Source: a virus. From it: 64,000 bases of DNA. The notes beneath the pieces were generated by a model. It saw only the letters and a list, made by a program, of their open reading frames with translations. It was not told the DNA's origin and did not search any database. The position numbers and the translations under genes were made by a program. Of the stretch, positions 13,521-25,320 are shown in pieces. The stretch lies in IMG/VR virus record IMGVR_UViG_3300023184_000036. One strand, written 5' to 3'. How positions within the stretch are numbered: position 1 is the first letter of the stretch; each line of letters starts with the position of its first letter.

Positions 13521-13718
13521 TTACTTGATGAGCAAGCCAAGTTCCTTTAGGTCTTCATAAAGGATATGATCGTTAGGAATGGTTTCAGTTTTACCATCTT
13601 TAACATTCTTGACAATCTTCTCAATATCGGTTGCAGTCATTTCTGTGCAACGCTTGATAGCTGCACGAACTTTGCCCCACTCAACAGTTCCACGATAACC
13701 CATGATCAACATTGTCAT
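13521..13718 (-). CDS. Small hypothetical protein
   Basis: GAGAG RBS; TTGACA-type promoter near 13750-13773. Confidence 0.65.
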   Translation of the reverse strand: MTMLIMGYRGTVEWGKVRAAIKRCTEMTATDIEKIVKNVKDGKTETIPNDHILYEDLKELGLLIK

Positions 13719-13779
13719 ATACTCTCTCTGTTATATTATTTTACCAATATACTATATATGTTTTTTTTTGTCAAGTAGT

Positions 13780-13975
13780 TTTTAACGGGTGGGATGCTAT
13801 TCCCACGATGGTTTTAGGATGGCCAAATTTTGGGGTTTCAATTGCCTGACGCAATCACCATTACCTTCACAGGTCTCTCACCTGTCCAGCCCACTGATAT
13901 AGGTCTGCAGTCCGCACAAATGGATTCTAGTTATACTCGCTCCAACCTTTACGCACAGCCGTGCCGCCGTTAAAA
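13780..13975 (-). ncRNA. Candidate structured non-coding RNA with tRNA-like closure
   Basis: GC-rich intergenic block; 9-bp terminal stem TTTTAACGG/CCGTTAAAA; several internal hairpins; no long ORF. Confidence 0.55.
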
Positions 13976-13979
13976 TCTT

Positions 13980-14762
13980 TTACGTCCATAATGATTTACG
14001 AAGTTTAACAATGCGTGTCAGCATTTCTGTTTCTTCTTCATCATACTGTTTTTCAATTTCTATTAAACGCTTATGTGCAATTTCACCACGCTCACGTTCT
14101 TCATCTGTTTTTTCTTTGGAAAAAAATCCATCACCATTTGCATGTAACAAGTCGCAATGTTCACTCCAACCACTAACATCCATAGGATCTGGACGGTTAG
14201 GGAAATTCTTGCACCAATTATATAATTCTTCAATTTCTATTGCACTAATTGCTTGATGTGTTAGTTGTCCATGCTTTTCATCGGTTTTATCAACACCCCA
14301 ACTTTCATCATAAGTTAAACCTTTTTCCCATGCAATATAATCTAAACCTGCTTCTGGACAACGCCCTTTAACAAATTTCCATTTCTTTTTCCAAGTATTT
14401 TTCCAAGCAAGTTCAATTTCAACATGATCAATAATAAGTTGACGCATGCCACTTACAAGACGACTATCACTGTCCCACCACTGACCAGGTTTTAAATCCG
14501 TTGGCATGATATGTGTGCGATCAATAAAACGATTACGAACATAACGTTTTGGTTTATTCCAAATTTCAGTTATGCTATAAACAACATCATCTAAAAAATT
14601 AGGAACTGTTTCAGTTAAAAAGAATCCAAGTGGTTTTGATTTTTTTAATTCATCATCCCACTTTTTCCAACCACCCCATTCAAGAGCAGTTGGTTTTTCA
14701 ATACCAAACTTTTTACGAATCCAGATGTTTAATGCACAATCCATAAAATAATAGTTTTTCAT
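13980..14762 (-). CDS. Hypothetical phage protein
   Basis: 260-aa ORF with GAGG RBS directly after tRNA-Thr. Confidence 0.7.
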   Translation of the reverse strand: MKNYYFMDCALNIWIRKKFGIEKPTALEWGGWKKWDDELKKSKPLGFFLTETVPNFLDDVVYSITEIWNKPKRYVRNRFIDRTHIMPTDLKPGQWWDSDSRLVSGMRQLIIDHVEIELAWKNTWKKKWKFVKGRCPEAGLDYIAWEKGLTYDESWGVDKTDEKHGQLTHQAISAIEIEELYNWCKNFPNRPDPMDVSGWSEHCDLLHANGDGFFSKEKTDEERERGEIAHKRLIEIEKQYDEEETEMLTRIVKLRKSLWT

Positions 14763-14778: not shown

Positions 14779-14853
14779 TGGTGCCCAAAGAGAGGATTGA
14801 ACTCCCGACCTACGCATTACAAGTGCGTTGCACTACCGCTGTGCTATTTGGGC
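14779..14853 (-). tRNA. tRNA-Thr(UGU) with encoded CCA
   Basis: Acceptor stem GCCCAAA/TTTGGGC followed by ACCA; anticodon arm ACGCA-CT-TGT-AA-TGCGT; T-loop TTCAATC. Confidence 0.93.
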
Positions 14854-15255: not shown

Positions 15256-16032
15256 ATGCATTTTGATTTAGTAAGTGACCTACACGAAAATTTCTGGCCA
15301 CCTGAAAAAAACTTAAAATGGGAAGGTCTTGGAACAAGTTTAGTATGCGTTGTTGCTGGTGATATCAGCAATGATTGGAATTATTCATATGAAAAACTTG
15401 TAGAAATCGGTGAACATTATCGCCATGTTATATTTGTTGATGGCAATCATGAACATGGTCATAAGCCTGATTTACACCACCATAATAATGAATTTCAATT
15501 ACGTATTGCTGAACATAATCATATTACATATTTGCACAAAAGTGTAATTGTATTAGATGATGTTGCATTTGTTGGTTGTAATGGTTGGTGGACATATGAT
15601 TTTTGTATGCCAGAAGTCACTAACTTTGAATGTTGGGATCACCTTATCAGTGAAGGTTGGAGTGATGATAAGTTAGCAGAAATTATGGCAGTTGCTAAAG
15701 TTGAAGCTAAAATGCTGTATACTCAAATAGAAACTTTTAATAATGACCCAAGAATAAATCATATTGTAGTTGTAACGCATACTTCGCCAAAACGTAAGTT
15801 TAGATTTATAACTCCTGATATGCATGTTGCACATTATGGTCGTGCAGGTAGTAGTTTGATGCAAACAGTGTTGTTAGCCAATACTAATAAGAAAATTAAA
15901 GCATGGTGTTTTGGTCATTGCCATCACGAAATAGATGAAACCATAGATGGTATAAGATATATTTGCCATCCACGTGGTCGCAGTGACGAAGGTATTGGAA
16001 ATATCTATTTTCCAAAATTAGTTCAATTTTAA
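15256..16032 (+). CDS. Calcineurin-like metallophosphoesterase
   Basis: SDLH, AGD, GNHE, VTH and FGHCH motifs. Confidence 0.9.
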   Translation: MHFDLVSDLHENFWPPEKNLKWEGLGTSLVCVVAGDISNDWNYSYEKLVEIGEHYRHVIFVDGNHEHGHKPDLHHHNNEFQLRIAEHNHITYLHKSVIVLDDVAFVGCNGWWTYDFCMPEVTNFECWDHLISEGWSDDKLAEIMAVAKVEAKMLYTQIETFNNDPRINHIVVVTHTSPKRKFRFITPDMHVAHYGRAGSSLMQTVLLANTNKKIKAWCFGHCHHEIDETIDGIRYICHPRGRSDEGIGNIYFPKLVQF

Positions 16033-16355
16033 GACTCTGGTTCTATCTTAACAGCAAGAGGAAAATTGTTTGTTCTTGCAAGTAGTGTTGTTTCTACTGC
16101 TTTGCTTTCAGCAATTTCAAATGGTAATACAGCAACCATTGCACTGCCTTCTTCATGAATTTTTACTGTTAATTCTTGTGCACTATCAAAGTTATGATCA
16201 AAGATTTCTTGTAATACTGCGATAACAAAATCAACAGTAGTTACATTATCATTCATAAAAATAACCTTAAACTTTGGTGGTGGAGTAAGGTCTTTTTTAG
16301 GTGTAATTTTAATTTTTGTGCGTGTTTGAACGTCTGTTGTCATTTTGCCCATCAT
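16029..16355 (-). CDS. clpS: ATP-dependent Clp protease adaptor ClpS
   Basis: PPPKFKVIFMNDNVTTVDFV...IHEEG...EIAESK...FPL. Confidence 0.92.
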   Translation of the reverse strand: MMGKMTTDVQTRTKIKITPKKDLTPPPKFKVIFMNDNVTTVDFVIAVLQEIFDHNFDSAQELTVKIHEEGSAMVAVLPFEIAESKAVETTLLARTNNFPLAVKIEPES

Positions 16356-16409: not shown

Positions 16410-16844
16410 TTAAGATTTTGCAATAGCTATTTTACGTGGCTTTTGTTCTTCTGGAATATGAAACTCCAGATTTACAATAAGCAATCCATTTTGCATCTTT
16501 GCAGTCTTGACTTCCATATTGTCAGCCAAATTAAATGTACGGACAAACTTGCGACTTGCAATACCACGAAATACGTATTCCGCAGTGGTTTCATTCTTAA
16601 TTTCACCAGTAATTACAAGTTGATTGTCCTTTAGCGTGATGTCAATATCATCTTCGCTAAATCCACTCGCCGCAATTTCAATTTGGTAGTCAGTATCACT
16701 ATTGCGGATGATGTTATAAGGTGGATAACTTTGCTGAACTTGCACTGAATTTACACGAAGCATATCATCAAATAGGCGTTCAAAACCAATTGCAGTGCGG
16801 TTAAAATGGTCAAAACCATCAAATACTTTAAGTAGATTACTCAT
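16410..16844 (-). CDS. Small heat shock protein (Hsp20/IbpA-like)
   Basis: IGFERLFD, SYPPYNI, RGIASRKFVRTF, NGLL and PEEQKPRKIAI motifs. Confidence 0.93.
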   Translation of the reverse strand: MSNLLKVFDGFDHFNRTAIGFERLFDDMLRVNSVQVQQSYPPYNIIRNSDTDYQIEIAASGFSEDDIDITLKDNQLVITGEIKNETTAEYVFRGIASRKFVRTFNLADNMEVKTAKMQNGLLIVNLEFHIPEEQKPRKIAIAKS

Positions 16845-16905
16845 TTTGTTTCTCCTTCTAAAAGCGAGTAAATTAGACGACCCAACTTTGGCATCGTCTA
16901 ATCTT
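16845..16905 (-). promoter_or_regulatory. ROSE-like RNA thermometer in the hsp20 5' UTR
   Basis: Upstream hairpin ATTAGACGA...TCGTCTAAT, then CTC(G)CTT-TTAG-AAGGAG pairing the SD with a bulged G (UCGCU motif). Confidence 0.65.
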
Positions 16906-24540: not shown

Positions 24541-25004
24541 TTAGCATCCGTATAAAACCAGTGGTTGCCTATCTTTTTAATAAACTTAAACCCTTTGTTT
24601 TTAAACGGTTTATTATTAAAGTATAGTGCACCACCTGTTGGATCATGCATATAAGCATCATATAATATGTGACCAGCTAAAAGATATAATTCCATATACT
24701 TTTCAGGTGTAATCTGCCTATAAGGATAACAAATAAAAGTAAACTGACAATCTTCTTGGCTGCGTTGATTAACAACCTTACAGGCGGTTTTTGGAAACTT
24801 GCCACTATTGATACGATTACGAACTACCCAACCAACTGCAACTTGCCCTTCATATCCTTCACCATAGGCTTCATAAAACAAAGCCTGAACTAAACACTCT
24901 GTTGGTGATTCCTGATAAACTTTTGGTTTTGGGGGTTGATCTTTAGAAAACGCAGGATAACTCACTGCGATTAAGGCTACCAAAGATATAAAAAGCCGTT
25001 TCAT
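24537..25004 (-). CDS. Cell wall hydrolase (SleB/Hydrolase_2 family) with signal peptide
   Basis: CLVQALFYEAYGE...AVGWVVRNR...CQF...DPTGGALYF...IGNHWFY. Confidence 0.88.
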   Translation of the reverse strand: MKRLFISLVALIAVSYPAFSKDQPPKPKVYQESPTECLVQALFYEAYGEGYEGQVAVGWVVRNRINSGKFPKTACKVVNQRSQEDCQFTFICYPYRQITPEKYMELYLLAGHILYDAYMHDPTGGALYFNNKPFKNKGFKFIKKIGNHWFYTDAN

Positions 25005-25020
25005 TACCTCATAAAAAGTT

Positions 25021-25285
25021 GCAACCATTTCTGTTTCTAGGCTGGTTGCCCACCCAATGAATTACGCCGCTAGGCGCATTTCAAATGGAGCGTTATCATT
25101 CGCTGCATTTACTTTTTTGGTCTATAAAGCGACTAACCTGTTATCTCCAACAATTCCTTCGCCGTCAATCGATTCCCATAACGGGCCCACAGAAATACAT
25201 CACTTTACTAATGTATTTGTGGTGGACCCGACCAGATTCGAACTGGTGTCTTGCCCAACTATTTCAATTGCTATCAACAATAACA
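25021..25285 (-). ncRNA. ssrA: Circularly permuted two-piece tmRNA
   Basis: Acceptor piece ends GACACCAGTTCGAATCTGGTCGGGTCCACCA (25220). Intervening hairpin 25189-25219. Coding piece begins GGGCCCG (25188), giving a G3-U70 Ala identity pair. Tag AANDNAPFEMRLAA* at 25062-25106. Confidence 0.9.
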
Positions 25286-25289
25286 ATAT

Positions 25290-25320
25290 TATTTATAGCA
25301 TCATTGTGGGTTTATGTCAA
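25290..25320 (-). promoter_or_regulatory. tmRNA promoter TTGACA-N17-TATAAATA
   Basis: Minus strand TTGACA-TAAACCCACAATGATGC-TATAAATA. Confidence 0.75.

Follow-up and report, generated by a model that had tools for sequence, protein, structure and literature searches.

A conserved, structured RNA gene of an uncatalogued family in uncultured freshwater jumbo phages

Introduction

Phage T4 encodes two stable RNAs that are not tRNAs, rnaC ('species 1') and rnaD ('species 2'), which are located beside tRNA-Arg in the T4 record. The ends of rnaC are paired and a T-arm hairpin lies next to its 3′ strand. tmRNA likewise has paired 5′ and 3′ ends, its 3′ strand carries a T-like arm, and a large pseudoknot domain, reached by a long helix, replaces the anticodon arm. 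ROOL and GOLLD are RNAs of phages and prophages that often lie near tRNA islands, contain pseudoknots and have no known protein partner. To our knowledge, RNA homodimers with a function occur rarely in nature, and pseudoknotted RNAs of about 205 nt with a new fold seldom come to light. ROOL, GOLLD and OLE self-assemble by symmetric kissing loops with covarying palindromes; for OLE and GOLLD, Kretsch et al. (PMC12286853) took switching from one palindrome to another as support for the intermolecular kissing loops seen by cryo-EM. Dimerization of the HIV-1 DIS is driven by purine-flanked 6-nt palindromic apical loops (PMC7357161).

Here we analyse a 64,000-nt stretch of a viral genome (IMG/VR record IMGVR_UViG_3300023184_000036; hereafter the window), in which an initial annotation had proposed an undescribed phage non-coding RNA, such as a tRNA-mimic decoy, a Y-RNA-like or a 6S-like RNA. 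The region 13775–13978 is a genuine gene for a conserved, structured RNA whose family is uncatalogued. Like the two T4 RNAs it is phage-encoded and located near tRNA genes, one gene from tRNA-Thr in the window and near a tRNA with a CUA anticodon, tRNA(CUA), in its relatives.

Results

Identity and extent of the RNA gene

The G+C content is 0.46–0.47 over positions 13800–14024 and approximately 0.30–0.36 in the flanks, which agrees with the GC-rich block described initially. That the block is non-coding was confirmed as well, as no reading frame is open across the RNA family and single-base insertions or deletions separate its members. Throughout the family G-U pairs outnumber A-C pairs (28 versus 13) and the promoters point in the same direction, so that the RNA is assigned to the minus strand. 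The covariance model R1 matches over the full length of the gene (Table 1).

Neither ARAGORN nor Rfam calls a tRNA or tmRNA at 13775–13978, and an anticodon loop, a CCA end and a conserved tag frame are absent, as had been claimed. The tRNA-Thr gene (14779–14853) is indeed located one gene upstream. In the whole window ARAGORN finds only tRNA-Gln, tRNA-Thr and a tmRNA, while Rfam 15 finds four families, namely the permuted tmRNA, two tRNAs and ROSE_3. The permuted (two-piece) tmRNA, a type that points to a host among the Alphaproteobacteria, is located at 24971–25316 on the minus strand (Rfam, 86 bits), and the ROSE_3 thermometer precedes hsp20 at 16839–16900, also on the minus strand (Rfam, 44.5 bits with a gathering score of 43).

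A comparison with Rfam 15 gave zero matches for the window RNA at the gathering threshold or at E ≤ 10, and nothing at E ≤ 10 for three divergent members of the family (the window RNA, the type A member L012 and the type B member L010). Together with the conserved homologues and the significant covariation described below, this bears out the proposal of an undescribed phage RNA. The data support a family that is new by Rfam 15; from the catalogue of approximately 10 000 viral candidate RNAs, whose candidates are 29–151 nt long by the range it gives (PMC10690425), it is set apart by candidate length only.

Table 1. Positions of the RNA gene, its structural elements and the adjacent genes within the window (minus-strand elements are read from high to low positions)
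Feature	Positions	Strand	Remarks
65-aa gene	13521–13718	minus	directly downstream of the RNA in 20/20 viral loci fetched with the 65-aa protein
Promoter of the 65-aa gene, TTGACA-N17-TATATT	13746–13774	minus	5 nt after P1; 11/12 match; conserved in all loci
Whole RNA gene	13775–13978	minus	approximately 204 nt (about 205), 5′ to 3′ from 13978 down to 13775; full-length match to covariance model R1, 220 bits
P1, 5′ strand UUUUAACGG (acceptor-like closing stem)	13967–13975	minus	pairs with 13780–13788; 97% of cells paired; 2 pairs with compensatory change
P2, D-arm-like hairpin GCAC-GGCU-GUGC	13953–13964	minus	2 nt after P1; 100% paired (21 copies); loop GGCU, GAGA or GAGU
P3, 5′ strand AGGUUGG ('anticodon stem' position)	13942–13948	minus	long-range helix with 13816–13822; compensatory change in 4/7 pairs
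J3/4, single strand AGCGAGUAUAACUAGAAU	13924–13941	minus	highly conserved; GGAGCGAG and AACU near-invariant
P4/P4a arm (CCAUU...AGUGG, inner GG/CC)	13891–13923	minus	P4 column pair 59/101: GC in 14 copies, AU in 6, CG in 1
Apical loop A-CUGCAG-A of P4a	13904–13911	minus	purine-flanked 6-nt palindrome; candidate kissing-loop dimerization site
P5, hairpin ACAGGU-GAGAG-ACCUGU	13869–13885	minus	100% paired; C-G to U-A in type B
Pseudoknot helix Y, 5′ strand AUGGU	13857–13861	minus	pairs with 13808–13812; crosses P3; 98% of cells paired
P6, hairpin AUUGC-GUCAG-GCAAU	13841–13855	minus	compensatory change in 4/5 pairs; cleanly deleted in L048
P3, 3′ strand CCAUCCU	13816–13822	minus	partner of 13942–13948
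Pseudoknot helix Y, 3′ strand ACCAU	13808–13812	minus	inside the 'variable region' between P3 and PT
PT, T-arm-like hairpin GUGGGA-AUAGCA-UCCCAC	13789–13806	minus	0 nt before the P1 3′ strand; 83% of cells paired; loop consensus R-U-R-G-C-R, not T-psi-C
P1, 3′ strand CCGUUAAAA	13780–13788	minus	partner of 13967–13975
260-aa gene	13980–14762	minus	stop codon 4 nt before P1 in this phage; preceded by tRNA-Thr

Relatives and subtypes

Related loci were recovered by means of the flanking 260-aa protein (five viral and ten metagenome loci) and the 65-aa protein (twenty viral loci), and nhmmer was then used for the RNA itself. In all 20 viral loci fetched with the 65-aa protein nhmmer detected the RNA, approximately 40 nt upstream of the gene and with the promoter in between. 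After removal of duplicates, IMG/VR and the JGI freshwater contigs yielded 21 distinct copies (126–248 bits), which fall into three subtypes. A complete 338-kb phage genome with terminal repeats contains exactly one copy. The carriers are a small clade of uncultured freshwater jumbo phages with one RNA per genome.

Type A includes the window RNA, type B (L010 and L003) has a longer P4 arm and the third subtype, L048, is missing one hairpin. The RNAs of the window and L012 are 85% identical, the adjacent genes 62% at the nucleotide level. Compared with type B, the RNA is only 50–53% identical while the gene is 71% identical, i.e. the RNA has diverged more than the gene, which suggests two structural subtypes instead of uniform drift. 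In L048 (1262–1448) the whole P6 hairpin is gone by a 21-nt deletion, while P3, helix Y and all other helices are kept and P3 carries compensating changes (GGGGUGG/CCAACCC). As this natural variant lacks P6 but keeps the other helices, P6 seems to be dispensable. The deletion and the two structural subtypes mark which parts of the RNA can be dispensed with.

Beyond this clade, a blastn search (word 11) with the 1.3-kb region against 50 697 phage records, as a survey of cultured phages, gave zero matches. A two-motif pattern scan of 185 579 bacterial genomes returned 37 stretches, which are attributed to chance because model R1 recognizes none of them as belonging to the family, the best score being 10 bits. 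Pattern scans of viral sequences with GACCTATATNAGTGGG retrieved mostly unrelated DNA, and those with AGGTGNGAGACCT...GGTAA mostly the coding sequence of a Walker-A motif (GARPNTGKT) in a helicase-like gene. The viral scan with GCACG...GGAGCGAG gave zero new members, and so did the other viral pattern scans.

Covariation supports a pseudoknotted nine-helix fold

RNAalifold on a MAFFT alignment gave a partial fold only. By hand analysis and two covariance models we arrived at alignment A8, which brings all helices into register. The nine-helix model on A8 comprises 49 pairs, and 92% of the cells are paired. Both sides have changed in 16 of the 49 pairs, compared with 5.2 ± 1.5 in shuffled alignments (0 of 500 shuffles reached 16) and with four to six in control structures slid by 1–3 columns; these counts come from little diversity (three subtypes), and many compensatory changes go back to the single split between types A and B. 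The folding energy of the window RNA, −62.1 kcal/mol, was better than that of most shuffled controls but only marginally so (z = −1.8; 13 of 200 shuffles were as good), and the opposite strand of the block folds no better. The case for structure therefore rests on covariation.

The strongest support was obtained for P3, P4, P6 and Y. P3 occurs across the family as AGGUUGG/CCAGCCU, ACAUUGG/CCAAUGU, AUCGG/CCGAU and, in L048, in the form given above, and P4 as CCA/UGG, CCG/CGG or ACGUU/AGCGU. Helix Y, a pseudoknot that had been missed initially, reads AGUGU/ACACU in type B instead of AUGGU/ACCAU, which accounts for two compensatory pairs. Four of the six hairpins listed in the initial annotation were recovered, as was its closing stem. 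The 9-bp closure P1 is present in each of the 21 copies, with a single replacement of A-U by G-C, and the T-like hairpin PT abuts its 3′ strand as described. P5 was confirmed with one compensatory pair and P6 with four. The D-like hairpin P2 is paired in 21 of 21 copies; its loop varies but its stem does not, so that P2 is neither supported nor contradicted by covariation. Two further hairpins, CCUAU-AUCA-GUGGG and UGGA...UCCA, are absent in the relatives and had to be abandoned. The bases in question are part of P4 (CCAUU/AGUGG), of P4a (GG/CC) and of the long-range helix P3 (AGGUUGG/CCAUCCU).

At the start of J3/4 an invariant GGAG (13938–13944, minus strand) could pair with an ACCC/AUCC/CUCC motif following P6 (13832–13836, minus strand). 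This contact amounts to only 2 bp in most type A copies, to 3 bp in type B and to 4 bp in L048 (CUCC) and L054, the latter with a double change (GGAU/AUCC). Its formation would be in competition with the top of P3. The pairing may represent a tertiary contact or an alternative state. Owing to the type A/B split, an all-against-all covariation scan was too noisy to reveal new tertiary pairs.

These data bear on the possibility that the locus has no function of its own and is a decaying relic, made up either of one or more degraded tRNA genes or of the inverted-repeat ends of a small mobile element. The ends of the RNA do form an inverted repeat, and the slot after the 260-aa gene holds tRNA(CUA) in relatives. 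Compensatory changes and an RNA identity of 85% next to 62% for the neighbouring gene show purifying selection, and each genome has the RNA just once, always at the same place. Covariation largely refutes such a relic, and we regard it as barely credible.

A palindromic apical loop switches in step

The apical loop of P4a has the form R-NUGCAN-A in all 19 type A plus L048 copies. Its hexamer is AUGCAU in 13 and CUGCAG in six of them and is never non-palindromic. Positions 1 and 6 of the hexamer (alignment columns 70/75) are A and U in 14 rows, C and G in six and gapped in one, with no non-pairing combination. In an unbiased scan these two columns were among the few strong covariations outside any helix. 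They cannot pair with each other within one molecule, since they are five positions apart in one 8-nt loop. The probability of meeting a 6-nt palindrome by chance at this base composition is 0.044 per 8-nt loop and 13% per 14-nt loop. The arms of type B contain CUUCGAAG (L010) and UCUAGA (L003), where the local fold is ambiguous and the palindromes cannot be assigned to an apical loop with confidence. Computed energies of the loop–loop duplexes range from −6.8 to −10.5 kcal/mol. Because the palindrome switches in step, as in the argument made for OLE and GOLLD (PMC12286853), and because its design resembles that of the HIV-1 DIS, we infer that the RNA probably forms a symmetric homodimer by a kissing-loop contact of P4a. 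With a single palindromic loop, a dimer rather than a cage is predicted.

The likeness to tRNA is topological

P1, P2, P3 and PT meet in a four-way junction whose order and spacing are those of the tRNA cloverleaf, where P1 corresponds to the acceptor stem, P2 to the D arm, P3 to the anticodon stem and PT to the T arm. P1 and P2 are connected by 2–3 nt, P2 and P3 by four, PT and the P1 3′ strand by none, and the 'variable' segment comprises 9–12 nt. P2 has 4 bp and a 4-nt loop, P3 has 7 bp and PT has 5–6 bp with a loop of 6–8 nt. Topology and three of the four connectors thus fit tRNA; the D-like loop is limited to its 4 nt, and the T-like loop lacks T-psi-C. Where tRNA has a 7-nt anticodon loop, P3 encloses a domain of 143 nt (the P4/P4a arm, P5 and P6), into which five bases of the 'variable' segment pair back as pseudoknot Y. 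The RNA ends in AAAACUAC instead of CCA, and a GG-containing D loop of normal size is missing along with the anticodon loop. The tRNA model RF00005 gave no match at E ≤ 10 for the window RNA, L012 or L010. The tRNA likeness of this RNA is topological only. The tRNA-mimic decoy suggested initially is a possible reading, to which the junction layout and the connector lengths would be suited.

We also considered a descent from tRNA. A 30-nt stretch of type A resembles the D and anticodon arms of tRNA(CUA), with z up to 4.5 for L012 in local alignments against shuffled sequences. This resemblance, which would fit the relic outlined above, is not significant for the window RNA, L006, L010 and L003 and finds no link in nhmmer, so that an origin from tRNA(CUA) is unproven. 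Nor is the RNA a replacement of the tRNA(CUA) that follows the 260-aa gene in relatives, because the same relatives hold both, the RNA being located further downstream, after one or two genes.

In L064 a truncated tRNA(CUA) is found within the approximately 70 nt that precede the RNA (L064:51–258, minus strand). Its T arm is cut off and the remainder is fused directly to the −10 region of the promoter of the RNA, which looks like a recombination scar. The D-arm region of this truncated copy is nearer to the 5′ part of the RNA than that of other tRNA(CUA) copies.

Genomic context and promoters

In the relatives with an upstream cassette, a sigma-70-type promoter (TTGACA-N17-TAYAWT) ends 1–2 nt before the RNA. 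In L012 this promoter (2148–2176, 11/12 match) is followed by the RNA (2178–2385) and a second promoter (2386–2414, 11/12 match); the upstream promoter is found in L003, L006, L048, L055 and L059 as well. In the window and nine other loci the RNA directly follows the stop codon of the 260-aa gene, and no good promoter lies upstream. A sense-strand intrinsic terminator after P1 was found in none of the loci, and we therefore infer the 3′ end of the RNA. Three metatranscriptome runs of the same study, with contigs at 80% likeness, yielded short spurious pieces only, none of them over the RNA.

On the plus strand, the PT hairpin followed by GAUGGUUUUA (13789–13816) scores as terminator-like, in the window as well as in L012. 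Since all neighbouring genes are located on the other strand, this antisense site is probably a by-product of the conserved CUAAAACCAUCG segment.

The cassette between the 260-aa gene and the RNA (L012:1452–2176, L003:3639–3820, L006:3292–3700) is absent from the window. It contains a tRNA with a CUA (amber-reading) anticodon and a gene of approximately 195 aa, which starts with ATG TCA TAG and hence has an in-frame amber codon at position 3, preceded by a good ribosome-binding site. Neither tRNA(CUA) nor the ~195-aa gene is present in the window, where tblastn gave no match. It thus seems that the suppressor tRNA and the gene that is its apparent client are gained and lost jointly.

The main rival to a free trans-acting RNA is a cis-acting leader or operon element of the 65-aa gene. 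As the 5′ part of the transcript of that gene, the structure would control the gene or the polymerase transcribing it, be it by riboswitch-like sensing, by processive antitermination or by stabilizing the mRNA, without any free RNA being made. The RNA is located directly upstream of the 65-aa gene in 20 of the 20 loci fetched with that gene while its upstream neighbours vary, there is no sense-strand terminator between the two, and conserved A-rich single strands together with a pseudoknot are typical of ligand-binding RNAs. On the other hand, a conserved sigma-70-type promoter with 11 of 12 matches lies between the RNA and the gene, which hence has a transcriptional start of its own that excludes the RNA. 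No terminator and no helix sequestering the ribosome-binding site follow the RNA, and no alternative pairing with the ribosome-binding site or other expression platform was seen. Furthermore, paired 5′ and 3′ ends and a palindromic loop are traits of free, stable RNAs. A cis-acting role is therefore regarded as unlikely.

In the window, the RNA has to be released from the transcript of the 260-aa gene, which might be done by the RNA itself if it were a self-processing or otherwise catalytic RNA cutting itself from an early transcript. A compact pseudoknotted fold with invariant single-stranded segments would be compatible with a ribozyme. It matches no ribozyme family of Rfam 15, however, no conserved cleavage-site motif was recognized, and the action of host RNases on an RNA sealed by P1 is a simpler account of its ends, so that we consider catalysis very improbable.

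Neighbouring proteins and possible partners

No Pfam or PHROG family was found for the 260-, 65-, 232- and 395-aa proteins. The model of the 260-aa protein is helical (pLDDT 74) and has no fold match. Among 5.8 billion proteins the 65-aa protein forms 15 clusters, all at least 75% identical, indicating a very narrow distribution. Its AF2 model (pLDDT 92) has the order beta-alpha-alpha-beta-alpha-beta and matches the C-terminal domain (CTD) of L7/L12 with Z 7.8 (rmsd 1.9 Å over 59 residues) and ClpS with Z 7.3, values that might reflect a common arrangement. A true ClpS gene, assigned by Pfam, is located at 16029–16355, 2.5 kb from the 65-aa gene.

The RNA could be the RNA subunit of a small phage ribonucleoprotein with the adjacent 65-aa protein as its partner, since the two are neighbours in every locus recovered, the protein (75–100% identity) is as conserved as the RNA and its L7/L12-CTD/ClpS-like fold is modelled with confidence. 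This fold is known to make protein–protein contacts and is not known to bind RNA, which counts against such a particle. In addition, the protein has no marked basic character, Z values below 8 lie in the range of a 'common arrangement' and synteny among close relatives is weak evidence. We judge the ribonucleoprotein rather unlikely. A more far-reaching idea is that the tRNA-shaped RNA, dimerizing by its DIS-like kissing loop, and the adjacent free-standing L7/L12-CTD-like protein together constitute a phage device that engages host translational GTPases or ribosomes. Though quite improbable, such a device would, if real, give a giant phage a novel means of taking over translation, beside its own tRNAs, tmRNA, S21 and ClpS.

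In the complete 338-kb relative we found no TROVE (Ro60), RtcB, PolyA_pol (CCA-adding enzyme) or SmpB, while the search controls for TROVE and RtcB were found. As there is also no Rfam match, the suggested similarity to Y RNA or YrlA is not upheld.

Discussion

The locus is best explained by a stable, trans-acting structured RNA of approximately 205 nt, belonging to an uncatalogued family that is present once per genome in freshwater jumbo phages, with a proposed role as dimer or scaffold. We hold this explanation with somewhat better than even confidence. In cassette-bearing phages the RNA would be transcribed from its own early sigma-70-type promoter, and in the phage of the window it would form the tail of the transcript of the 260-aa gene. 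Either way P1, which pairs the 5′ and 3′ ends, would define and protect the mature ends. Two molecules might then join via the purine-flanked palindrome of P4a to form the symmetric kissing-loop homodimer, which could serve as a scaffold or decoy for a factor that recognizes the tRNA shape, be it part of the tRNA-processing or translation machinery or a tRNA-directed defence nuclease. Since the RNA is small enough, direct structural work is feasible, and the tRNA-like frame combined with a covarying palindromic loop makes dimerization directly testable with loop mutants.

Comparison with known RNAs shows where the family is set apart. The 6S-like RNA offered as one identity in the initial annotation found no support, as the fold is a branched, pseudoknotted four-way junction and not a rod with a central bubble, and Rfam gave no match. 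With tmRNA the window RNA has in common the paired ends, the T-like arm on the 3′ strand and the long helix to a large pseudoknot domain in place of the anticodon arm. However, ARAGORN and Rfam, which do call the real permuted tmRNA of the window, do not call this RNA. The pair 3:70 would be A-U instead of G3-U70, there is no ACCA end and no canonical T loop, the reading frames differ among the subtypes so that no tag frame is conserved, and the complete relative lacks an SmpB gene. T4 rnaC shares the paired ends and the T-arm hairpin next to the 3′ strand, but its T arm has the canonical GGUUCGAAUCC, which the window RNA lacks. There is no homology to rnaC or rnaD: model R1, run without filters on the T4 tRNA region, reached 7.5 bits at best and did not match the whole of either RNA. 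In addition, the window RNA is longer (205 nt versus 139 and 119 nt), pseudoknotted and equipped with a palindromic loop. The nearest architectural analogues are tmRNA and T4 rnaC, neither of which is a homologue.

The models of ROOL, GOLLD, OLE and raiA gave no match to the RNA in Rfam 15 at the gathering threshold or at E ≤ 10. ROOL, GOLLD and OLE are three to four times larger (approximately 500–800 nt) and assemble into 8- to 14-mer cages or, in the case of OLE, dimers. The putative dimer would have self-assembly by symmetric kissing loops with covarying palindromes in common with them (PMC12286853), its signature here being read from the sequence alone. The HIV-1 DIS is similar in its 6-nt palindrome with purine flanks, R-CUGCAG-A or G-AUGCAU-A in our family and GUGCAC or GCGCGC in DIS (PMC7357161). 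It differs in being located in a retroviral genome leader, and the stem closing the loop of the window RNA has only 2 bp and non-canonical pairs. With its position near tRNA genes, the window RNA joins T4 rnaC and rnaD, ROOL and GOLLD in a growing group of structured RNAs maintained by large phages next to their tRNA genes. The recurrence of such RNAs at these sites suggests a general RNA-based function in the phage takeover of translation or in the evasion of defence.
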